In this document: one piece after another, positions 45,177 through 59,833 of the stretch
Layout: every line of letters starts with the position of its first letter
Numbering within the stretch: the stretch's first letter is position 1
DNA from: Escherichia coli
Lineage (GTDB): Bacteria > Pseudomonadota > Gammaproteobacteria > Enterobacterales > Enterobacteriaceae
Strand: one strand, 5' to 3'
Length of the DNA stretch: 64,000 nt
NCBI RefSeq assembly: GCF_046105845.1
Contig: NZ_CP151004.1
Translations under genes and position numbers: made by a program
Notes under the pieces: generated by a model
Database searches by the model: none
The model's input: the letters and a program-made list of their open reading frames with translations, nothing else
What the model was told of the DNA's origin: nothing

Positions 45177-45878
45177 TTACGATTTACAGTTGAGTTGCGG
45201 CGTTTCCGCCCCGTAGTCATTGATGGTTCGGTACGTTACGCTACTGTTTTGAGCACCCTTTGGCAGAGGGAATTGGTATTTATCAAAGGGGGAAATCATT
45301 TGATTTTTAACTACTTTTCCACCTATTTTCAGGTCTGTCAGGGTAATGAAATAAGGTGTTGGGTTACTGACCGTAACCATGTCAGCTGACGAAGTGCAAC
45401 GCAGTTTCGCCGGAGCCTCGGCTAAGGGATATGCTAAACCTTTTGGTCGCCAAAAAAGTTTGATGACGCTTTGTGTGGCAATCTTCAGGGTATTGCCTTC
45501 TTCCCGCTTCGTTGTTGAAGGGACTGCCCGTACGCTGGTGAAGAAAAGAGTTTCTCTGTCTTTCGCCAACGGCGCACCAATATACATAATGCGTAACAGA
45601 TTCTCATTTGCCGGATTCAGCACAAATAGCGGTGGTGTAATAATAAAGTCCGCTGATTTTTTATTATCTGGTGTCATCACCCATGACTGAATAAGATAAG
45701 GAACATCCGGACTGGTGTTACGTACACCCAGTGAAATTTGCTCTTCACCTTCCGAATAAACAAGACGTGTTGCTGCAAGTCCAACCCCGCCTTTACCTGC
45801 CGCCCATGTGGACGAACAGCTGAGTAATATTGCCGTTAAACTTACGGTCACAATTCCCTTTGTTATGCAAGTTTTCAT
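45177..45878 (-). CDS. elfD: Fimbrial periplasmic chaperone ElfD (YcbR)
   Basis: 233-aa ORF, PapD-like chaperone. Confidence 0.93.
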   Translation of the reverse strand: MKTCITKGIVTVSLTAILLSCSSTWAAGKGGVGLAATRLVYSEGEEQISLGVRNTSPDVPYLIQSWVMTPDNKKSADFIITPPLFVLNPANENLLRIMYIGAPLAKDRETLFFTSVRAVPSTTKREEGNTLKIATQSVIKLFWRPKGLAYPLAEAPAKLRCTSSADMVTVSNPTPYFITLTDLKIGGKVVKNQMISPFDKYQFPLPKGAQNSSVTYRTINDYGAETPQLNCKS

Positions 45879-45960
45879 AAATAGTCACTCTTAAAAAATA
45901 TGGATATCCCCTCCAGAACACTGGAGGGGGACTAATTAATAAAACAATTAATGTGTTCTA

Positions 45961-46500
45961 TTAATAATAGTTAATATGGAAGTTTGTTACCGCATTAACA
46001 TTACCTGAAGTGGCTTTACCCGTAGCGATATAATCAACTTTAAAGGTCAACGTCTGATCTCCATTCTGCAACAAGATGTTCCCGGTTTCTGTGTCTGGCG
46101 TAATGGTCGTTGTGCCATCATTCATGTACATTTGCAGGGCCACGTTTGTAGCAGCATCAGTAGAGGCCTGATTAGCAAACGCTGTAATCTGCGTAGTATC
46201 CGCAGTGCCATTAAAGGTGAACGTTGCATTTTTTGTTACGGTAATATCACAATCTTTTAATTCAATTGGCACATCAGTTTGCACTCCAGAAACCTGGCCA
46301 TTACTTTGCAACTTCGTAGCACTAACATCTGGCAAAGTCACCACGGAATCTTTCGTCACAGCTACCAGCGAACAAGCTGGAGCAATGACTTTACCATTAA
46401 ATGTTACTTTGCCATCCGTGATAGCATTATCATCAGCCGCCATAGCACTGGACGTTGCACATACCACAGTTATAAACGCCGTCAATACACTTTTTTTCAT
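45961..46500 (-). CDS. elfA: Major fimbrial subunit ElfA (YcbQ)
   Basis: ORF trimmed to MKKSVLTAFITVVCATSSAMA (179 aa); AT-rich upstream region. Confidence 0.9.
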   Translation of the reverse strand: MKKSVLTAFITVVCATSSAMAADDNAITDGKVTFNGKVIAPACSLVAVTKDSVVTLPDVSATKLQSNGQVSGVQTDVPIELKDCDITVTKNATFTFNGTADTTQITAFANQASTDAATNVALQMYMNDGTTTITPDTETGNILLQNGDQTLTFKVDYIATGKATSGNVNAVTNFHINYY

Positions 46501-46855
46501 CGTTATCATCCTGATTTTTTCGTAAATATGATAATGCCTTTAAATGACATTGGACTTAATAATAACAACAATTGTCCGCCATTTAAATCAAGCATCCTTA
46601 ATCCAATAAGTGACAAATCTTTAATTTATAGATTTCATGAATATTTTCTTATTACCTGAATGAGTAATTCATTGATTCAACATCGACTGAATATCCAATA
46701 AATAAATACACGTGATACATATCCCTCAATCCTTAGTTCATTTTTAGAAAAAGATACACAAAATTTATATTTGGCATTTTCTTGTCTCTCCGACAGACTG
46801 ACCGAATTGTTATCAATGTTAACAAAACAAGAACAATTGGTTATAAGGAGAGAGT

Positions 46856-47431
46856 ATGCGTGTCATCACCCTGGCGGGTAGTCCTCGCTTTCCTTCTCGC
46901 TCCAGCTCCTTGCTGGAATATGCGCGGGAAAAACTGAATGGCCTGGATGTAGAGGTTTATCACTGGAATCTGCAAAACTTTGCCCCGGAAGATCTGCTTT
47001 ATGCTCGTTTCGATAGTCCGGCACTCAAGACCTTCACCGAACAGCTGCAACAGGCTGATGGACTGATAGTCGCTACACCTGTGTATAAAGCCGCCTATTC
47101 CGGTGCGCTGAAAACCCTGCTCGACCTGCTGCCAGAACGCGCTCTGCAAGGCAAAGTGGTGCTGCCGTTGGCGACGGGCGGCACGGTGGCTCATCTTTTG
47201 GCGGTCGATTACGCCCTTAAACCGGTTTTAAGCGCACTGAAAGCTCAGGAGATCCTGCACGGCGTGTTTGCCGATGACTCTCAGGTGATTGATTACCACC
47301 ACAAACCCCAGTTCACGCCAAATCTGCAAACCCGTCTTGATACCGCGCTGGAAACTTTCTGGCAGGCATTGCACCGTCGGGATGTTCAGGTTCCTGACCT
47401 TCTGTCTCTGCGAGGTAATGCCCATGCGTAA
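46856..47431 (+). CDS. ssuE: NAD(P)H-dependent FMN reductase SsuE
   Basis: 191-aa ORF MRVITLAGSPRFPSRSS; first gene of ssuEADCB. Confidence 0.95.
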   Translation: MRVITLAGSPRFPSRSSSLLEYAREKLNGLDVEVYHWNLQNFAPEDLLYARFDSPALKTFTEQLQQADGLIVATPVYKAAYSGALKTLLDLLPERALQGKVVLPLATGGTVAHLLAVDYALKPVLSALKAQEILHGVFADDSQVIDYHHKPQFTPNLQTRLDTALETFWQALHRRDVQVPDLLSLRGNAHA

Positions 47432-48383
47432 GATCATTAAACTGGCGCTGGCGGGCTTACTTAGCGTCTCTACACTTGCTGTTGCCGCGGAGTCTTCGCC
47501 AGAGGCGTTACGGATTGGCTATCAGAAAAGCAACATTAGTTCGGTGCTGGCGAAAAATTACCAAATGCTGGAAAAACGCTATCCGCAAACAAAAATCTCC
47601 TGGGTGGAGTTCCCCGCTGGCCCACAGATGCTGGAGGCGTTAAACGTCGGCAGTATCGATCTCGGCAGTACCGGGGATATTCCGCCAATCTTTGCCCAGG
47701 CTGCCGGGGCTGATTTGGTATACGTGGGCGTCGAGCCGCCGAAGCCCAAAGCCGAAGTGATTCTGGTGGCAGAAAACAGCCCGATCAAAACCGTAGCCGA
47801 TCTTAAAGGTCACAAAGTTGCCTTTCAGAAAGGTTCCAGTTCGCACAATCTTTTACTACGCGCACTACGCCAGGCCGGGCTTAAGTTTACCGATATACAA
47901 CCCACTTACCTGACACCCGCTGATGCCCGCGCCGCGTTCCAGCAAGCTAACGTCGACGCATGGGCTATCTGGGATCCCTACTACTCCGCTGCATTATTAC
48001 AGGGCGGCGTGCGGGTGCTAAAAGACGGCACCGATCTCAATCAGACCGGATCGTTTTATCTGGCTGCCCGTCCGTATGCAGAAAAAAACGGCGCATTTAT
48101 TCAGGGTGTACTGGCAACCTTTAGTGAGGCCGATGCGTTAACCCGCAGCCAGCGCGAGCAAAGCATCGCCTTATTGGCAAAAACGATGGGCTTACCGGCC
48201 CCGGTGATTGCCTCGTATCTGGATCATCGCCCTCCCACCACCATCAAACCGGTTAACGCCGAAGTTGCCGCCTTACAGCAGCAAACGGCAGATCTGTTTT
48301 ATGAAAACCGTCTGGTGCCGAAAAAAGTCGATATCCGCCAGCGTATCTGGCAGCCCACTCAACTGGAAGGAAAACAATTATGA
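47424..48383 (+). CDS. ssuA: Aliphatic sulfonate ABC transporter periplasmic binding protein SsuA
   Basis: ORF trimmed to [21 protein letters not shown] (319 aa); 8-nt overlap with ssuE. Confidence 0.93.
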
Positions 48384-49525
48384 GTCTGAATATGTTCTGG
48401 TTTTTACCGACCCACGGTGACGGGCATTATCTGGGAACGGAAGAAGGTTCACGCCCGGTTGATCACGGTTATCTGCAACAAATTGCGCAAGCGGCGGATC
48501 GCCTGGGCTATACCGGTGTGCTGATCCCAACGGGGCGCTCCTGCGAAGATGCGTGGCTGGTGGCGGCGTCGATGATCCCAGTGACGCAGCGGCTGAAGTT
48601 TCTTGTCGCCCTGCGCCCCAGTGTGACATCACCTACCGTTGCCGCCCGCCAGGCCGCCACGCTTGACCGTCTCTCGAATGGTCGTGCGTTGTTTAACCTG
48701 GTCACAGGCAGCGATCCACAAGAACTGGCAGGCGACGGCGTGTTCCTTGATCATAGCGAGCGCTACGAAGCCTCGGCGGAATTTACCCAGGTTTGGCGGC
48801 GTTTATTGCTGGGAGAAACCGTCGATTTCAACGGCAAACATATTCATGTGCGCGGAGCAAAACTGCTCTTCCCGCCGATTCAACAGCCGTATCCTCCACT
48901 TTACTTTGGCGGATCGTCAGATGTCGCCCAGGAGCTGGCGGCAGAACAAGTTGATCTCTACCTCACCTGGGGCGAACCGCCGGAACTGGTTAAAGAGAAA
49001 ATCGAACAAGTGCGGGCGAAAGCTGCCGCGCATGGACGCAAAATTCGTTTCGGTATTCGTCTGCATGTGATTGTTCGTGAAACCAACGACGAAGCGTGGC
49101 AGGCCGCCGAGCGGTTAATCTCGCATCTTGATGATGAGACTATCGCCAAAGCACAAGCCGCATTCGCCCGGACGGATTCCGTAGGACAACAGCGAATGGC
49201 GGCGCTACATAACGGCAAGCGCGACAATCTGGAGATCAGCCCCAATTTATGGGCGGGCGTTGGCTTAGTGCGCGGCGGTGCCGGGACGGCACTGGTGGGC
49301 GATGGTCCGACGGTCGCTGCGCGAATCAACGAATACGCCGCGCTTGGCATCGACAGCTTTGTGCTTTCGGGCTATCCGCATCTGGAAGAAGCGTATCGGG
49401 TCGGCGAGTTGCTGTTCCCGCATCTGGATGTCGCCATTCCGGAAATTCCCCAGCCGCAGCCGCTGAATCCGCAAGGCGAAGCGGTGGCAAATGATTTTAT
49501 CCCCCGTAAAGTCGCGCAAAGCTAA
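48380..49525 (+). CDS. ssuD: FMNH2-dependent alkanesulfonate monooxygenase SsuD
   Basis: 381-aa ORF, luciferase-like monooxygenase; 4-nt overlap with ssuA. Confidence 0.95.
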
Positions 49526-51134: not shown

Positions 51135-53745
51135 AAGCCAGTGCTTTGGTGATCTTCTCGTACAGATCGCCAGAGAGATTTTCCAGCCCTTTCAACTGCT
51201 CCAGCGCCGCGCGCATTTTCTCCTGACGTTTGGCATCGTAACGTTTCAGGCGAATCAGCGGCTCAATCAGGCGTGAAGCCACCTGCGGGTTACGGCTGTT
51301 GAGGTCGGTAAGCATTTCCACCAGGAACTGGTAACCGCTGCCATCTTCGGCATGGAACGCTGCCGGATTGCTGCCCGCAAACGCGCCAATCAACGAACGA
51401 ATACGGTTCGGGTTGCTCATGGTAAATGAGCGATGCTGCAACAGACCGCGCACCGTCTCCAGCACATTCGCCGCCGGGCTGGTGGCTTGCAGGATAAACC
51501 ATTTATCCATCACCAGACCGTCCTGATGCCACTTGTCGTCGTACTCCTGCATCAGCGCGTCACGGCAAGGCAGCTGTGCAGCAACCGCCGCAGAAAGCGC
51601 TGCCAGCGCATCGGTCATATTGTTTGCTTCATGGTATTGCTTGCTCACCAGCACGTCAGCCAGATGCGTTTCACCAAAAGCAAGGAAGCGCAGGCAGGCA
51701 TTACGCAGAGTGCGTTTTGCAATATCTTCATGCTCAACACGGTACTCGCTCTGGTAATTCGCGTTGTAAATAGCCAGTAGCTCATCCGCCAGTTCAGTCG
51801 CCAGAGTACGAGTGAGTGCTTCGCGTACTTCAGCAATAGCAATCGGGTCGATGATATCGAACAGTTCTGCCATTTCATTGACGGAAGGCAGCGTCAGGAT
51901 TTCTGCCACCAGCGCCGGATCAATCTTCTCATCAAGCAGTACCGCGCGGAAAGCATCAGCCACATGCACCGGCAGAGACAGCGGCTGACCTTGTTGATGA
52001 CGCGCGACGTTCAGCTTGATGTAGGTTGCCAGCAGGCTTTGCGCCGCATCCCAGCGGGAGAAATCATTACGCGCATGACGCATCAGGAAGGTCAGTTGCT
52101 GATCGCTCCACTTATATTCCAGTTTCACTGGCGCAGAGAATTCGCACAACAGCGCAGGCACCGGCTGGAAGTAGACATTATCAAAGACAAAGGTCTGTTC
52201 CGCCTGGGTGACGTTCAGCACCGAATTGACCGGATGACCGCCTTTCTGCAACGGGATCACTTTGCCTTCGTTATCATACAGTTCGATGGCAAACGGAATA
52301 TGCAGCGGCTGTTTTTCTGCCTGATCCGGCGTAGCTGGCGTGCGCTGGCTGATGGTCAGGGTGTACTGCTCGGTTTCTGGATTGTAGTCGTCTTTGACGG
52401 TCACAATCGGCGTACCGGACTGGCTGTACCAACGGCGGAAATGGGAGAGATCGACATTCGACGCATCTTCCATCGCCTGCACAAAGTCGTCACAGGTCGC
52501 TGCACTACCATCATGACGCTCGAAATAGAGCTGCATCCCTTTCTGGAAGTTTTCTTCGCCCAGCAGGGTGTGGATCATGCGAATCACTTCCGCGCCCTTC
52601 TCGTAAACGGTCAGGGTGTAGAAGTTGTTCATTTCAATGACCATATCCGGGCGGATCGGGTGCGCCATCGGGCTGGCGTCTTCCGCAAACTGCAATCCGC
52701 GCATGGTGCGCACGTTGTTGATACGGTTTACCGCGCGGGAACCAAGGTCAGAGCTGAATTCCTGATCGCGGAACACGGTTAAACCTTCTTTCAGGCTGAG
52801 CTGGAACCAGTCGCGGCAGGTCACACGGTTACCGGTCCAGTTATGGAAATATTCATGGCCGATAACACGCTCAATATCGAGGTAATCTTTATCGGTGGCG
52901 GTGTCGGTACGGGCCAGCACATATTTGGAGTTAAAGATATTCAGACCTTTATTCTCCATTGCGCCCATATTGAAGAAATCCACCGCGACGATCATATAGA
53001 TGTCGAGGTCATACTCCAGGCCGAAGCGTTCTTCATCCCATTTCATGGAGTTTTTCAGCGAGGTCATCGCCCACGGCGCGCGGTCGAGGTTGCCGCGATC
53101 GACGTACAACTCCAGCGCCACTTCGCGACCAGAACGCGTGGTGAAGGTGTCGCGCAGCACGTCGAAGTCGCCTGCAACCAGCGCAAACAGGTAGCACGGT
53201 TTAGGGAACGGGTCCTGCCACTGTACCCAGTGACGTCCGTTTTCCAGTTCGCCTTGCGCAACGCGGTTACCGTTGGAAAGCAGGAAGGGATATTTGGTTT
53301 TATCGGCAATAATTTTGGTGGTAAAACGCGCCAGCACGTCCGGGCGGTCGAGATAATAGGTAATATGGCGGAAACCTTCGGCTTCACACTGGGTGCAAAG
53401 CGCATCGCCTGACTGATAAAGCCCTTCCAGCGCGGTATTCGTCGCCGGGCTAATTTCATTAACGATCTTAAGCGTAAAACGCTCCGGCAAATTACTGATG
53501 ACCAGTGCGCCCTCTTCTTCTTTCCAGGCGGTCCACGGCTCATCATTAATATGAACAGAAACCAGTTTAAGATCTTCGCCATCAAGACGAAGCGGAGCAT
53601 CTGATGCACCATGACGGACAGCCTGGCTGACCGCGGTAACGACCGTCTTTTGCGCGTCCAGGTCAAAGGTCAAGTCAATATCAGTAATCTGGTAATCCGG
53701 CGCACGATAATCGTGACGGTATTTGGCTTGTGGCTGTTGAGTCAT
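51133..53745 (-). CDS. pepN: Aminopeptidase N
   Basis: 870 aa; M1 zinc metallopeptidase with HEYFHNWTG and GAMEN motifs. Confidence 0.97.
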   Translation of the reverse strand: MTQQPQAKYRHDYRAPDYQITDIDLTFDLDAQKTVVTAVSQAVRHGASDAPLRLDGEDLKLVSVHINDEPWTAWKEEEGALVISNLPERFTLKIVNEISPATNTALEGLYQSGDALCTQCEAEGFRHITYYLDRPDVLARFTTKIIADKTKYPFLLSNGNRVAQGELENGRHWVQWQDPFPKPCYLFALVAGDFDVLRDTFTTRSGREVALELYVDRGNLDRAPWAMTSLKNSMKWDEERFGLEYDLDIYMIVAVDFFNMGAMENKGLNIFNSKYVLARTDTATDKDYLDIERVIGHEYFHNWTGNRVTCRDWFQLSLKEGLTVFRDQEFSSDLGSRAVNRINNVRTMRGLQFAEDASPMAHPIRPDMVIEMNNFYTLTVYEKGAEVIRMIHTLLGEENFQKGMQLYFERHDGSAATCDDFVQAMEDASNVDLSHFRRWYSQSGTPIVTVKDDYNPETEQYTLTISQRTPATPDQAEKQPLHIPFAIELYDNEGKVIPLQKGGHPVNSVLNVTQAEQTFVFDNVYFQPVPALLCEFSAPVKLEYKWSDQQLTFLMRHARNDFSRWDAAQSLLATYIKLNVARHQQGQPLSLPVHVADAFRAVLLDEKIDPALVAEILTLPSVNEMAELFDIIDPIAIAEVREALTRTLATELADELLAIYNANYQSEYRVEHEDIAKRTLRNACLRFLAFGETHLADVLVSKQYHEANNMTDALAALSAAVAAQLPCRDALMQEYDDKWHQDGLVMDKWFILQATSPAANVLETVRGLLQHRSFTMSNPNRIRSLIGAFAGSNPAAFHAEDGSGYQFLVEMLTDLNSRNPQVASRLIEPLIRLKRYDAKRQEKMRAALEQLKGLENLSGDLYEKITKALA

Positions 53746-53963
53746 AAATAACCTTTAGCATCTTTTATAGAGTCTGGTGTTCAGTCTATTCCTGTTGCGT
53801 AAATCTCGCTACGCAGAATCTTCATCTTTTCAGGTACAAACGCCTTTATTGCTACATTTTTATAACATACACCGCGTAATGCCATCGACCAGAAAGGTGG
53901 CATATGGTGTGATCGGGGTTCAATAAATTGCGAAACAAGGTATACTCCAGCAGTTCCTGAAGA

Positions 53964-53980
53964 TGTTTATTGTACTAAAC
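53964..53980. promoter_or_regulatory. Candidate NadR operator (NAD box) upstream of pncB
   Basis: TGTTTA-ttgtac-TAAACG resembles the TGTTTA-N6-TAAACA inverted repeat about 30 nt upstream of the pncB ATG; recalled consensus, one mismatch. Confidence 0.45.
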
Positions 53981-54010
53981 GCTCCTGTACGAGGACGCTA
54001 CTGCGCACCT

Positions 54011-55213
54011 ATGACACAATTCGCTTCTCCTGTTCTGCACTCGTTGCTGGATACAGATGCTTATAAGTTGCATATGCAGCAAGCCGTGTTTCATCACTAT
54101 TACGATGTGCATGTCGCGGCGGAGTTTCGTTGCCGAGGTGACGATCTGCTGGGTATTTATGCCGATGCTATTCGTGAACAGGTTCAGGCGATGCAGCACC
54201 TGCGCCTGCAGGATGATGAATATCAGTGGCTCTCTGCCCTGCCTTTCTTTAAGGCCGACTATCTTAACTGGCTACGCGAGTTCCGCTTTAACCCGGAACA
54301 AGTCACCGTGTCCAACGATAATGGCAAGCTGGATATTCGTTTAAGCGGCCCGTGGCGTGAAGTCATCCTCTGGGAAGTTCCTTTGCTGGCGGTTATCAGT
54401 GAAATGGTACATCGCTATCGCTCACCGCAGGCCGACGTTGCGCAAGCCCTCGACACGCTGGAAAGCAAATTAGCCGACTTCTCGGCATTAACCGCCGGTC
54501 TTGATATGTCGCGCTTCCATCTGATGGATTTTGGCACCCGCCGACGTTTTTCTCGTGAAGTACAAGAAACCATCGTGAAACGTCTGCAACAGGAATCCTG
54601 GTTCGTGGGCACCAGCAACTACGATCTGGCGCGTCGGCTTTCCCTCACGCCGATGGGAACACAGGCACACGAATGGTTCCAGGCGCATCAGCAAATCAGC
54701 CCGGATCTAGCCAACAGCCAGCGAGCTGCACTTGCTGCCTGGCTGGAAGAATATCCCGACCAACTTGGCATTGCATTAACCGACTGCATCACTATGGATG
54801 CTTTCCTGCGTGATTTCGGTGTCGAGTTCGCCAGTCGCTATCAGGGCCTGCGTCATGACTCCGGCGACCCGGTTGAATGGGGTGAAAAAGCCATTGCACA
54901 TTATGAGAAGCTGGGAATTGATCCACAGAGTAAAACGCTGGTTTTCTCTGACAATCTGGATTTACGCAAAGCGGTTGAGCTATACCGCCACTTCTCTTCC
55001 CGCGTGCAATTAAGTTTTGGTATTGGGACTCGCCTGACCTGCGATATCCCCCAGGTAAAACCCCTGAATATTGTCATTAAGTTGGTAGAGTGTAACGGTA
55101 AACCAGTGGCGAAACTTTCTGACAGCCCTGGCAAAACTATCTGCCACGATAAAGCGTTTGTTCGGGCGCTGCGCAAAGCGTTCGACCTTCCGCATATTAA
55201 AAAAGCCAGTTAA
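54011..55213 (+). CDS. pncB: Nicotinate phosphoribosyltransferase
   Basis: ORF trimmed to [19 protein letters not shown] (400 aa). Confidence 0.95.
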
Positions 55214-55220
55214 TATCATC

Positions 55221-55246
55221 AGGGAGCTAATCGGCTCCCTTTTTTT
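55221..55246 (+). terminator. Rho-independent terminator of pncB
   Basis: AGGGAGC-taatc-GGCTCCCT followed by TTTTTT. Confidence 0.75.
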
Positions 55247-55381
55247 ACCTTTAATTCCGAAATCTTTCGCTGCATTTGCGAATTCTGCTTGTCTGATTGC
55301 AGATGCCAGGTAACATAGGTATCCCCCCATTTACGGGTGGACAAGTGTTTATTTTTTCCGACTATTAACAGAGAGAATATT

Positions 55382-56782
55382 ATGAGCGTTGTGCCTGTAG
55401 CCGACGTACTCCAGGGCCGCGTAGCCGTTGACAGCGAAGTCACCGTGCGCGGATGGGTACGTACCCGCCGAGATTCAAAAGCTGGCATCTCCTTCCTCGC
55501 CGTTTATGACGGTTCCTGCTTTGATCCTGTACAGGCTGTCATCAATAATTCTCTGCCCAATTACAATGAAGACGTCCTGCGTCTGACCACCGGTTGCTCG
55601 GTCATTGTGACGGGTAAAGTCGTGGCATCGCCGGGCCAGGGGCAACAATTTGAAATTCAGGCCAGCAAGGTTGAAGTTGCTGGTTGGGTTGAAGATCCAG
55701 ACACTTACCCGATGGCGGCAAAACGCCACAGCATTGAGTATCTGCGTGAAGTCGCTCACCTGCGTCCGCGCACAAACCTGATTGGTGCCGTCGCGCGCGT
55801 TCGCCATACGCTGGCGCAGGCGCTGCATCGCTTCTTTAACGAGCAGGGATTCTTCTGGGTTTCAACGCCACTGATTACTGCGTCTGATACCGAAGGGGCT
55901 GGCGAAATGTTCCGCGTTTCTACGCTGGATCTGGAAAACCTGCCGCGTAACGATCAGGGCAAAGTGGATTTCGACAAAGACTTCTTTGGTAAAGAGTCTT
56001 TCCTGACCGTATCTGGCCAGTTGAACGGCGAAACCTACGCTTGCGCATTGTCCAAAATTTATACCTTCGGCCCGACTTTCCGTGCTGAAAACTCCAACAC
56101 CAGCCGTCACCTGGCGGAATTCTGGATGCTGGAGCCGGAAGTGGCGTTTGCTAACCTGAACGATATCGCGGGTCTGGCTGAAGCCATGCTGAAATATGTC
56201 TTCAAAGCGGTTCTCGAAGAACGCGCTGACGACATGAAATTCTTCGCTGAACGCGTAGATAAAGATGCCGTTTCACGTCTGGAACGCTTCATTGAAGCCG
56301 ATTTTGCGCAGGTGGATTACACCGACGCAGTGACCATTCTCGAAAACTGCGGCAGGAAGTTTGAAAACCCGGTTTACTGGGGCGTTGATCTCTCTTCTGA
56401 GCATGAGCGTTATCTGGCGGAAGAACACTTTAAAGCACCGGTAGTGGTTAAAAACTATCCGAAAGATATTAAAGCGTTCTATATGCGCCTTAACGAAGAC
56501 GGTAAAACCGTTGCGGCTATGGACGTTCTGGCTCCGGGCATCGGTGAGATCATTGGTGGCTCCCAGCGTGAAGAGCGTCTGGACGTGCTGGACGAGCGTA
56601 TGCTGGAAATGGGCCTGAACAAAGAAGATTACTGGTGGTATCGCGATCTGCGTCGCTACGGTACTGTTCCGCATTCCGGTTTCGGTCTTGGTTTTGAACG
56701 CCTGATTGCTTACGTAACTGGCGTGCAAAACGTGCGTGATGTGATTCCGTTCCCACGTACTCCGCGTAACGCCAGCTTCTAA
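55382..56782 (+). CDS. asnS: Asparagine--tRNA ligase
   Basis: ORF trimmed to [20 protein letters not shown] (466 aa); class II aaRS. Confidence 0.97.
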
Positions 56783-56796
56783 TTTAGCGTCTTCAA

Positions 56797-56824
56797 GAGC
56801 CAGCGCCCGCTGGCTCTTTTTTTA
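56797..56824 (+). terminator. Rho-independent terminator of asnS
   Basis: GAGCCAGC-gccc-GCTGGCTC followed by TTTTTTT. Confidence 0.75.
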
Positions 56825-57173
56825 TCCTTTCTGTCAAGTTATCTGTTTGTTAAGTCAAGCAATCTATTTGCAACCCCACCATAACGATCATCCTGTTACG
56901 GAATATTACACTGCAACATTTGCGCACAAAAAATAATCCGCATTCTTATTGCGGATTAGTTTTTTCTTAGCTGATAGCACAATTTTCATACTGTTTTTTG
57001 GCGTTCTGGATGTCTGAACGAGGATTTAGTGCCAGGTCGATAAAGTTTCCATCAGAAACAAAATTTCCGTTTAGTTAATTTAAATATAAGGAAATCATAT
57101 AAATAGATAAATATTGCTGTAAATATCATCACGCTTCTATGGAAATATGACGGTGTTCACAAAGTTCCTTAAA

Positions 57174-57240
57174 TTTTACTTTTTGTTACATATTTTTTCT
57201 TTTTGAAACCAAATCTTTATCTTTGTAGCACTTTCACGGT
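57174..57240 (+). promoter_or_regulatory. ompF promoter-proximal OmpR-binding region (F1-F3 boxes)
   Basis: TTTACTTTTTTGTTACATATTTTTTCTTTTTGAAACCAAATCTTTATCTTTGTAGCACTTTCACGG matches the ompF upstream OmpR box array as recalled; within a 600-bp AT-rich intergenic region. Confidence 0.7.
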
Positions 57241-57384
57241 AGCGAAACGTTAGTTTGAATGGAAAGATGCCTGCAGACACATAAAGACACCAAACTCTCA
57301 TCAATAGTTCCGTAAATTTTTATTGACAGAACTTATTGACGGCAGTGGCAGGTGTCATAAAAAAAACCATGAGGGTAATAAATA

Positions 57385-58458
57385 ATGATGAAGCGCAATA
57401 TTCTGGCAGTGATCGTCCCTGCTCTGTTAGTAGCAGGTACTGCAAACGCTGCAGAAATCTATAACAAAGATGGCAACAAAGTAGATCTGTACGGTAAAGC
57501 TGTCGGTCTGCATTATTTTTCTAAAGACAATGGTGTAAACAGTTACGGCGGAAACGGCGACAAAACTTATGCCCGTCTTGGTTTTAAAGGGGAAACACAA
57601 ATCAATTCCGATCTGACCGGCTACGGTCAGTGGGAATATAACTTCCAGGGTAACAACTCTGAAGGCGCTGATGCCCAGAAAGGTAACAAAACTCGTCTGG
57701 CATTCGCAGGTCTGAAATTCGCTGATGCGGGTTCTATCGACTACGGTCGTAACTACGGTGTGGTTTACGACGCACTGGGTTACACCGATATGCTGCCTGA
57801 GTTTGGCGGTGACACGGCATACAGCGATGACTTCTTCGTTGGTCGTGTAGGCGGCGTTGCTACCTATCGTAACTCCAACTTCTTCGGTCTGGTTGACGGC
57901 CTGAACTTTGCCGTTCAGTACTTGGGCAAAAACGAACGTGCTGGTATTCCTGAGCGTTCCAACGGCGACGGCGTCGGTGGCTCTATCAGCTACGAATTCG
58001 AAGGCTTTGGTATCGTAGGTGCTTACGGTGCAGCAGACCGTACCGACGCCCAGGAAGCCGAATTCCGCGGTCAGGGTAAAAAAGCTGAACAGTGGGCAAC
58101 TGGTCTGAAGTATGACGCGAACAACATCTACCTGGCAGCGAACTACGGTGAAACCCGTAACGCTACGCCAATTGAAGGCGGCTTCGCCAACAAAACGCAA
58201 GACGTTCTGTTAGTTGCGCAATACCAGTTCGATTTCGGTCTGCGTCCGTCCATCGCTTACACCAAATCTAAAGCGAAAGACGTAGAAGGTATCGGTGATG
58301 TTGATCTGGTGAATTACTTTGAAGTGGGCGCAACCTACTACTTCAACAAAAACATGTCCACCTATGTTGACTACATCATCAACCAGATCGATTCTGACAA
58401 CAAACTGGGCGTAGGTTCTGACGACACCGTTGCTGTGGGTATCGTTTACCAGTTCTAA
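57385..58458 (+). CDS. ompF: Outer membrane porin OmpF (divergent loop allele)
   Basis: [22 protein letters not shown] signal peptide, C-terminal VGIVYQF; 357 aa versus 362 aa recalled for K-12. Confidence 0.95.
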
Positions 58459-58484
58459 TAGCACACCTCTTTGTTAAATGCCGA

Positions 58485-58513
58485 AAAAACAGGACTTTGG
58501 TCCTGTTTTTTTT
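58485..58513 (+). terminator. Rho-independent terminator of ompF
   Basis: AAAAAACAGGAC-tttgg-TCCTGTTTTTTTT. Confidence 0.8.
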
Positions 58514-58642
58514 ATGCCTTCCAGAGCAATCTCACGTCTTGCAAAAACAGCCTGCGTTTTCATCAGTAATAGTTGGAATTTTGTAAATCTCCCGTTACCC
58601 TGATAGCGGACTTCCCTTCTGTAACCATAATGGAACCTCGTC

Positions 58643-59833
58643 ATGTTTGAGAACATTACCGCCGCTCCTGCCGACCCGATTCTGGGCCTGGCCGATCTGT
58701 TTCGTGCCGATGAACGTCCCGGCAAAATTAACCTCGGGATTGGTGTCTATAAAGATGAGACGGGCAAAACCCCGGTACTGACCAGCGTGAAAAAGGCTGA
58801 ACAGTATCTGCTCGAAAATGAAACCACCAAAAATTACCTCGGCATTGACGGCATCCCTGAATTTGGTCGCTGCACTCAGGAACTGCTGTTTGGTAAAGGT
58901 AGCGCCCTGATCAATGACAAACGTGCTCGCACGGCACAGACTCCGGGTGGCACTGGCGCACTACGCGTGGCTGCCGATTTCCTGGCAAAAAATACCAGCG
59001 TTAAGCGTGTGTGGGTGAGCAACCCAAGCTGGCCAAACCATAAGAGCGTCTTTAACTCTGCAGGTCTGGAAGTTCGTGAATACGCTTATTATGATGCGGA
59101 AAATCACACCCTTGACTTCGATGCACTGATTAACAGCCTGAACGAAGCTCAGGCTGGCGACGTAGTGCTGTTCCATGGCTGCTGCCATAACCCAACCGGT
59201 ATCGACCCTACGCTGGAACAATGGCAGACACTGGCACAACTTTCCGTTGAGAAAGGCTGGTTACCGCTGTTTGACTTCGCTTACCAGGGGTTTGCCCGTG
59301 GTCTGGAAGAAGATGCTGAAGGACTGCGCGCTTTCGCAGCTATGCATAAAGAGCTGATTGTTGCCAGTTCCTACTCTAAAAACTTTGGCCTGTACAACGA
59401 GCGTGTTGGCGCTTGTACTCTGGTTGCTGCTAACAGTGAAACTGTTGATCGCGCATTCAGCCAAATGAAAGCGGCGATTCGCGCTAACTACTCTAACCCA
59501 CCAGCACACGGCGCTTCTGTTGTTGCCACCATCCTGAGCAACGATGCATTACGTGCGATTTGGGAACAAGAGCTGACTGATATGCGCCAGCGTATTCAGC
59601 GTATGCGTCAGTTGTTCGTCAATACGCTGCAGGAAAAAGGCGCAAACCGCGACTTCAGCTTTATCATCAAACAGAACGGCATGTTCTCCTTCAGTGGTCT
59701 GACAAAAGAACAAGTGCTGCGTCTGCGCGAAGAGTTTGGCGTGTATGCTGTTGCTTCTGGTCGTGTGAACGTAGCCGGGATGACACCAGATAATATGGCT
59801 CCGCTGTGCGAAGCGATTGTGGCAGTGCTGTAA
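58643..59833 (+). CDS. aspC: Aspartate aminotransferase
   Basis: 396-aa [42 protein letters not shown] lysine in SYSKNFGLY. Confidence 0.97.

Follow-up and report, generated by a model that had tools for sequence, protein, structure and literature searches.

A mosaic minority allele class of the porin gene ompF in Escherichia coli, differing from K-12 mainly in its surface loops

The question raised by the ompF gene in the window (that is, the whole 64,000-nucleotide stretch of Escherichia coli DNA analysed here, from contig NZ_CP151004.1) is how a chromosomal porin gene comes to differ from its K-12 counterpart in a series of tight patches, and whether these differences speak of recent selection, of an older history or of a change in drug entry. 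A sequence-only reading had described the gene as an OmpF allele diverged from that of K-12 in putative surface loops, and regarded the pattern as typical of diversifying selection on extracellular loops that serve as phage and colicin receptors and affect antibiotic permeation.

The ompF locus and its product

The gene is an intact open reading frame of 357 codons plus a stop in the program-made list of open reading frames, and it is delineated by asnS (which ends at 56782) and aspC (58643-59833), in the order and orientation of the asnS-ompF-aspC segment of E. coli K-12. The product scores 751.9 bits against the NCBIfam OmpF equivalog NF007446 (cut-off 583), and remains under the respective cut-offs of the models for the paralogues PhoE (486 versus 599) and OmpC (465 versus 484); it also matches Pfam PF00267 (Porin_1) with 456.9 bits. 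The antisense open reading frames inside ompF have nothing in their support and are treated as chance occurrences. An AlphaFold2 model of the protein, calculated with an input alignment of 40 homologues (pLDDT 77), has 16 predicted strands according to DSSP and presents the long, in-folded loop L3; the best Foldseek matches of this model are crystal structures of OmpF (TM 0.89-0.93, rmsd 2.0 Å). No solved structure of the window allele was found among the OmpF entries, all of those with 340-341 residues being of K-12 length (with 7FDY, 'OmpF1', and 7FF7, 'OmpF2', looked over in outline).

At the N-terminus, the Sec signal peptide (residues 1-22) is unchanged relative to K-12 in the BLASTP alignment; the cleavage site is assigned after residue 22 in line with mature K-12 OmpF, which begins AEIYNK. 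The C-terminus reads ...VYQF, and thus the C-terminal Phe, a beta-barrel assembly signal, is kept. The 200 nt preceding the ATG show no difference from K-12 in an alignment of the asnS-ompF intergenic region from six strains, and position 57184, which adjoins this identical stretch, is tri-allelic among the six aligned sequences. From what is known of K-12 ompF, we take these 200 nt to hold the OmpR-dependent promoter sites and the 5' UTR that is targeted by the MicF small RNA. Beyond the stop codon, a hairpin followed by a T run is likely to be the intrinsic terminator of ompF; a consensus promoter/terminator scan had neither an ompF promoter nor an ompF terminator among its calls. The features of the locus are collected in Table 1.

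Table 1. Features of the ompF locus, with positions in the window
Feature	Position	Strand	Basis
Upstream 200 nt (presumed promoter, proximal OmpR sites, 5' UTR, ribosome-binding site)	57185..57384	+	six-strain asnS-ompF intergenic alignment
ompF coding sequence, protein identical to WP_000977905.1	57385..58458	+	open reading frame, NF007446, Porin_1
Signal peptide, codons 1-22, same as K-12	57385..57450	+	alignment; cleavage site as in K-12 OmpF
Central divergent block, ~676 bp, bounded by the outermost differences from K-12 in codons 40-265	57504..58177	+	codon table, dS, tree
L1, codons 47-57, with G26D and E29V	57523..57555	+	DSSP on AF2 model, substitution map
M38K, codon 60, directly past L1, top of β2	57562-57564	+	DSSP on AF2 model
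L2, codons 89-101, with T77K	57649..57687	+	DSSP, substitution map
Periplasmic-end patch Y90F, V93A, F96I, codons 112-118, not an extracellular loop	57718..57738	+	DSSP
Constriction loop L3, codons 121-158, 0 amino-acid and 9 synonymous changes versus K-12	57745..57858	+	codon table
L4, codons 180-195; AGIPE (57940-57954) replaces K-12 DTAR, giving +1 residue and R167E	57922..57969	+	codon table, DSSP
L5, codons 219-232, six substitutions within K-12 NLQEAQPLGN	58039..58080	+	codon table, DSSP
L6, codons 259-269; 18-bp length difference between 58173 and 58174 (TNKFTN absent), then TS>EG	58159..58191	+	codon table, outgroup alignment
3' quarter of ompF, E. coli-typical, 2 synonymous differences from K-12, dS 0.035	58178..58458	+	codon table, tree
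Hairpin then T run beyond the stop codon, AAAAAACAGGAC TTTG GTCCTGTTTTTTTT	58484..58513	+	seen in the sequence itself

Far from being new, the allele is a known and widespread natural variant of OmpF that has already been catalogued. Over all 357 aa the protein matches WP_000977905.1 with 100% identity; this is the OmpF annotated in IAI39 and in strain 50579417, and the ompF gene in the window has 2-3 synonymous nucleotide differences from the genes of these two strains. Relative to ompF of IAI39 and CE10, the DNA is 99.8% identical and the chromosomal position is the same; what sets the window gene apart from those of the WP_000977905.1 class is a pair of synonymous singletons (CDS positions 538 and 930) and a different base at 57184. 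At least 1,000 public contigs encode the exact protein, which UniRef records under E. coli only, as entry C9E711 (C9E711_ECOLX) in a 90%-identity cluster of its own with 544 members. Among 5,426 complete E. coli genomes, 484 (~9%, or about one in eleven), IAI39 and CE10 included, have an allele that is at least 99% identical at the DNA level. The carrier strains IAI39 and CE10 belong to phylogroup F and 50579417 is ST405-like and of phylogroup D; the carriers differ from one another by only 0.2-0.6%. The isolates that harbour the allele come from sources including wild bird, poultry, pig and dog, and some carriers, for example ST405-like ones, are multidrug-resistant clinical strains.

Amino-acid differences from K-12 OmpF

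The reference for the comparison was K-12 OmpF, b0929, taken from NC_000913 (P02931), and substitutions are given in mature numbering. BLASTP aligns the two proteins with 336 of 363 identities and 7 gap columns (~93% protein identity); the window protein has 357 aa (335 residues in the mature form) and K-12 OmpF 362 aa. These lengths had been given correctly by the sequence-only reading, and all seven of the patches that it quoted are exact. The codon table yields 20 substitutions, namely, G26D, E29V, M38K, T77K, Y90F, V93A, F96I, D164G, T165I, A166P, R167E, Y182F, N198D, L199A, Q203E, P204F, L205R, N207Q, T247E and S248G, so the quoted patches were an incomplete list, Y182F having been missed. 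There are also two indels: relative to K-12, L4 is one residue longer (an inserted Ala) and L6 is six residues shorter (TNKFTN, mature 241-246), with a net change of −5.

The changes lie mainly in extracellular loops, as had been supposed. The loop borders were assigned by DSSP on the AF2 model, which superposes on OmpF crystal structures, and follow precursor numbering (L1 to L6 as in Table 1; L8 334-347). The five loops L1, L2, L4, L5 and L6, which make up 65 of the 335 mature residues, hold 15 of the 20 substitutions and both indels (binomial P = 1.2e-7), and L3, L7 and L8 are free of amino-acid changes relative to K-12. The remaining five substitutions fall outside the loops: M38K lies in the uppermost part of β2; the trio Y90F, V93A and F96I runs from the end of β4 through the periplasmic turn T2 into the start of β5; and Y182F is at the periplasmic end of β8. 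The impression that the beta-barrel segments are unchanged is, therefore, only approximately true. E51V and M60K (precursor numbering) are among the positions at which natural OmpF is variable (Camprubí-Font et al., PMC6691688). Moreover, Chen et al. (bioRxiv 10.1101/2021.09.21.461324) describe a hypervariable region of OmpF that faces the inside of the barrel, and the Y90F/V93A/F96I patch fits this description.

Within the pore, 26 residues were compared with K-12, comprising a published permeability list (PMC4690030, Table 1), the residues of the constriction zone and L3, and the L2-L3 latch pair. The sole change is R167E, located in L4 at the pore mouth; the constriction and pore-lining set is kept, including K16, R42, R82, R132, D113 and E117, as well as PEFGGD in L3. 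The comparison suggests that any effect of this allele on antibiotic permeation would rest on that one listed residue.

The polarity of several differences can be judged from related sequences. The short form of L6, that is, the form without TNKFTN, is also seen in E. albertii, Escherichia sp. SCPM-O-B-8794 and three Citrobacter species in the outgroup alignment, and it is the consensus of the 40 homologues; consequently, the K-12-type L6 is most parsimoniously explained by an insertion. The '5-residue deletion' reported earlier is thus correct as a net figure, but combines the L6 gap with the extra residue in L4, and TNKFTN is most likely an insertion on the K-12 side rather than a loss from the window allele. 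Long forms of L6 do occur in other lineages of the wider family, indicating that this loop is prone to indels. Likewise, Phe90, Ala93 and Phe182 are the family consensus residues, and so it is K-12 that is derived at these positions. The L4 motif AGIPE, together with Asp26 and Val29 of L1, is confined to the window allele class among the sequences compared; Lys38 is also derived, yet one related metagenome sequence has it too.

The central block and the history of the allele class

The ompF gene in the window is a mosaic, its segments differing both in divergence and in phylogenetic placement. In a sliding comparison with K-12, the flanks are 97-99.6% identical and ompF is 90-92% identical, and from about 58350 the identity is back at 99.6%. 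A central block, with ~87% DNA identity to K-12, contains every amino-acid difference and both indels: within codons 40-265, 86 of the 675 aligned nucleotides are different, compared with 2 of 393 in the remainder (Fisher P = 6e-16). Synonymous differences number about 60 and are scattered over codons 40-262, those of L3 and the strands included. By the pairwise Nei-Gojobori method, codons 23-269 have a dS of 0.47 and a dN/dS of 0.11 versus K-12; the variable loops (L1/L2/L4/L5/L6) have a dN of 0.16 with an omega of 0.16, and in the strands dN is roughly tenfold lower, at 0.017.

The divergence of this block is unusual within the species and comparable with that between species. The other E. 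coli alleles sampled (K-12, O157, two of B2 type and one from ETEC) are all 362 aa long and share 96.7-99.3% identity with one another, as compared with 91-93% with the window allele. Over the block, the window and K-12 are 87.3% identical (98.3% for the flanking aspC and 98.9% for asnS), whereas K-12 is 92.1% identical to Escherichia sp. SCPM-O-B-8794 and 89.5% identical to E. albertii. The corresponding values for the window are 86.1% with SCPM-O-B-8794 (aspC 91.5%, asnS 93.4%) and 84.7% with E. albertii (aspC 90.8%, asnS 92.8%). In neighbour-joining trees, the ends of ompF group with K-12 at 100% bootstrap (the 3' part with K-12 and a B2 allele), whereas the central block branches outside E. 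albertii and E. coli, with a bootstrap of only 56-64%. When synonymous distances are taken from the strands only, the window and K-12 are separated by 0.32, similar to the 0.34 between K-12 and SCPM-O-B-8794 and below the 0.46 between K-12 and E. albertii, so that a description of the block as 'older than the species' would not be secure. The safe statement is that its divergence appears to be as deep as divergence between species.

Recombination between the allele classes is directly evidenced by strain 67-1, the ompF of which is of K-12 type except for the L1 patch of the window allele class. Furthermore, when a strain of phylogroup D is compared with one of phylogroup F, the pncB-asnS-ompF segment is 98.8-100% identical, a nearly identical flank of ~5 kb, as compared with 94-98% for the neighbouring DNA of the same pair. 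The presence of a divergent block inside ordinary E. coli gene ends and flanks points to homologous recombination with intragenic breakpoints, and, in combination with the high dS, these breakpoints argue for an old allele class with intragenic recombination rather than a recent burst of loop substitutions.

Overall, we consider it very probable that the window carries the chromosomal ompF gene in the form of a minority, 357-aa allele class, mosaic in its make-up and predicted to encode a functional porin, and that this class persists most plausibly through frequency-dependent pressure. The product would be a general-diffusion porin. The signal peptide, predicted 16-strand barrel, L3, listed pore residues (R167E apart), upstream 200 nt and terminator hairpin are K-12-like, and the outer surface is altered in L1, L2, L4, L5 and L6. 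The central block of ~676 bp would stem from a lineage whose distance from the common E. coli allele equals or exceeds that of the ompF of other Escherichia species, and it would have recombined into ordinary E. coli ompF backbones, leaving gene ends and flanking genes of ordinary E. coli type. This structure implies that two allele classes have persisted for long within the species, most plausibly under frequency-dependent pressure from whatever binds the loops of OmpF, presumably T-even-like phages, colicins, CDI effectors and antibodies. That loop variation is linked to phage and colicin receptors, as the sequence-only reading had it, agrees with the accepted view, which extends to CDI (PMC5056734; bioRxiv 10.1101/2021.09.21.461324). 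The identity and frequency of the allele, its mosaic structure, the location of the changes in loops and the conservation of the pore are what the comparisons show. Selection on the loops is deduced from the clustering of the changes, pairwise dN/dS lying far under 1 in the loops as elsewhere. It may be selection on receptor function that maintains the polymorphism, and phage and colicin specificity may differ between the alleles. A literature search for balancing selection on ompF in natural E. coli returned nothing relevant.

A bolder form of this proposal, which we put forward only tentatively, is that the central block represents a truly ancient polymorphism, at least as old as the split of E. 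coli from its sister Escherichia and possibly trans-specific. Its frequency of ~9% would then be held by frequency-dependent selection on the phage/colicin/CDI receptor, recombination would have homogenised the gene ends and flanks, and the K-12 type would be the derived one at TNKFTN, Tyr90, Val93 and Tyr182.

Alternatively, the block could be a relatively recent introgression, imported by homologous recombination from an unsampled Escherichia or other close enterobacterial species and then spread in E. coli. This is conceivable, although we think it rather unlikely. The block is more diverged from K-12 than is the ompF of two other Escherichia species and lies outside them in the tree, and the slight mutual difference of the carriers, together with the near-identical ~5 kb flank shared by D and F strains, would fit a young spread. 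However, no donor has come to light: among the 19 other species' ompF listed, none is nearer to the block than K-12 (at most 86% identity), and every non-E. coli ompF in that listing is <87% identical. E. fergusonii, E. marmotae, E. ruysiae and E. whittamii, which do not appear by name among the loci listed, could include a recent donor. Additionally, a degenerate pattern for the L4 motif matched a single contig in a search of metagenome contigs, and that contig is E. coli-like; the restriction of the exact protein to E. coli in UniRef also tells against import.

Recent diversifying selection, acting through point mutations on the loops of an otherwise K-12-like gene, is improbable. Its appeal lies in the clustering, which is real: the loop concentration of 15 in 20 (P = 1e-7) and the excess of variable-loop dN, about ten times that of the strands, are what it would predict, and earlier genome scans reported ompF as positively selected (Petersen 2007 and Chen 2006, as cited in bioRxiv 10.1101/2021.09.21.461324). 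Nevertheless, a pairwise dN/dS above 1, as diversifying selection would lead one to look for, is not seen either overall or in the variable loops (omega 0.11-0.16), although individual codons may still be under selection, and even the ratio of loop dN to strand dS is only ~0.5. The accompanying synonymous differences, in L3 and the strands as elsewhere, the sharp breakpoints to K-12-identical sequence on both sides, and the occurrence of the allele at 99.8% identity in strains of both phylogroups D and F likewise run counter to a recent origin by point mutation.

It is very improbable that the allele is an antibiotic-driven porin alteration that lowers drug entry in clinical lineages. Arg167, the mutation of which alters antibiotic permeation (PMC4690030, Table 1), is indeed replaced by Glu, and the ST405-like carriers are among the multidrug-resistant clinical strains. 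Yet all of the other listed permeability residues and the whole of L3 are unchanged, the published R167S substitution raises permeability rather than lowering it (PMC4690030), and what has been described for ompF in producers of carbapenemases is resistance-associated inactivation and promoter mutation, not the window allele (PMC6970295). The isolates from wild bird, poultry, pig and dog also speak against a clinical origin, and the divergence far predates antibiotics. Finally, a decaying or non-functional copy, or an assembly artefact, has practically no likelihood, having nothing in its favour except the difference in length from K-12, and it is ruled out by the intact frame, signal peptide, C-terminal Phe, ribosome-binding site and conserved upstream 200 nt, by the dN/dS of 0.11, and by the identical protein on at least 1,000 independent contigs.

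The window allele among known porin systems

In practice, the K-12 protein should not be taken as 'the' OmpF of E. coli: in about one in eleven complete genomes the surfaces of L1, L2, L4, L5 and L6 are different and the charge at Arg167 is reversed. Caution is warranted when results from K-12 are extrapolated to clinical lineages of phylogroups D and F, be it for the host range of phages, sensitivity to colicins or CDI, vaccine epitopes or antibiotic docking. For discovery as such there is little practical consequence, given that RefSeq and UniProt already contain the allele and that its class is on record in the literature. Were the polymorphism truly ancient and balanced, it would provide a clean bacterial case of long-term receptor polymorphism; this would be an evolutionary footnote and not a new kind of system.

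Next to the identical WP_000977905.1, a close known system is K-12 OmpF (b0929, P02931; crystal structures 2OMF, 1OPF and others), with which the window allele shares the locus, signal peptide, fold, L3, L7 and L8, the listed pore residues and the upstream 200 nt. It departs from K-12 OmpF in its 20 substitutions, in the additional residue in L4 and the six fewer in L6, in the surfaces of L1, L2, L4, L5 and L6, in having Glu at the position of Arg167, and in the central 676 bp with ~87% DNA identity.

The allele also conforms to a broader pattern among E. coli outer membrane proteins. According to Chen et al. (bioRxiv 10.1101/2021.09.21.461324), ompC, ompA, lamB, fhuA and ompF are mosaics with a conserved barrel, hypervariable loop tips, shuffling by local recombination and allele clusters that do not follow the phylogroups; for OmpF, five groups are distinguished in E. 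coli, arising from mosaic recombination of hypervariable regions, and CE10 OmpF is illustrated. The loop polymorphism of OmpC is similar, with a conserved barrel and hypervariability at the loop tips, and the loops of OmpF and OmpC vary among isolates under pressure from phage and immunity (Beck et al., PMC5056734). The diversity and evolution of ompF in Yersinia, the subject of Stenkova et al. (PMC3105102) by its title and abstract, concern the same major porin gene in a different enterobacterial genus. Chen et al. work at the level of protein, and their text, in the part available, does not state how deep the synonymous divergence runs, where the gene has internal breakpoints or in which direction L6 changed in length; these are additions made here. 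We would regard as mildly novel only how deeply the central block has diverged and that the L6 indel runs opposite to the direction first supposed.

Placement of the window among E. coli genomes

The gene order of the window is wholly E. coli-like (etk-hya-app ... elf-ssu-pepN-pncB-asnS-ompF-aspC-mukB). When its full length (1-64000) was compared by thirds with 5,426 complete RefSeq E. coli genomes, the best matches lay at 98.4-99.0% identity, and none was higher; the source strain is from a lineage that is sparsely covered by complete genomes.

Local divergence and exchange of the ompF segment

Across the pncB-asnS-ompF segment, IAI39 (phylogroup F) and strain 50579417 (phylogroup D), both of which encode a protein identical to the OmpF of the window, are 98.8-100% identical, and the DNA adjoining this segment is 94-98% identical between the same two strains. 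This pattern of identity suggests that the allele of ompF has crossed from one phylogroup to another, taking ~5 kb of flank along with it. A second stretch of local divergence is seen in the elfA-ssuEAD region: identity to K-12 is 90-97% here, and that to the best phylogroup D match is just 94-97%, as against 98-100% farther along; judged by these values, it looks like another recombination patch.

Further features of the window
Coordinates	Feature	Location	Reading
~45400-48400	locally divergent stretch	elfA-ssuEAD	
~53400-58850	segment shared by IAI39 and 50579417	pncB-asnS-ompF	
56795-56818	hairpin + T run	asnS-ompF intergenic region	likely the asnS terminator
56934-56958	hairpin + T run	asnS-ompF intergenic region	terminator, on both strands
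57184	tri-allelic site	~200 nt 5' of the ompF start codon	

Within the intergenic alignment, the tri-allelic site upstream of ompF is occupied by T in the window, by G in K-12 and strain 67-1, and by A in IAI39 and O157; additionally, the B2 strain U12A carries two more changes, 3 and 7 nt downstream. The site lies within a T-rich stretch, which we take to be the distal OmpR-binding box.

Other forms of ompF

The protein P0031 (E. coli, 385 aa; a single record) is an OmpF of the K-12 type in which 23 residues, covering the end of strand β11 and surface loop L6, are tandemly duplicated. In strain FDAARGOS_1281 (NZ_CP070134.1, 4770000-4771077), which carries an ompF of the same allele class as the window, 1,078 bp were aligned to the 1,074-bp query at 99.4% identity; the difference in aligned length suggests a 4-bp indel, by which the gene may possibly be inactivated.

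The ompF of E. coli strain 67-1 (NZ_CP035826; 1501-2589 of the extracted locus) is an intragenic recombinant: the window-type patch in loop L1 (D48, V51 and K60, precursor numbering) is set, together with V115I, in a gene that is otherwise K-12-type and encodes 362 aa. P0037, a 348-aa protein from a metagenome contig, joins an OmpC-like N-terminal region of ~100 residues to a window-type OmpF remainder, with AGIPE in L4 and a short L6; such a chimera could have arisen naturally between ompC and ompF, or else during assembly.
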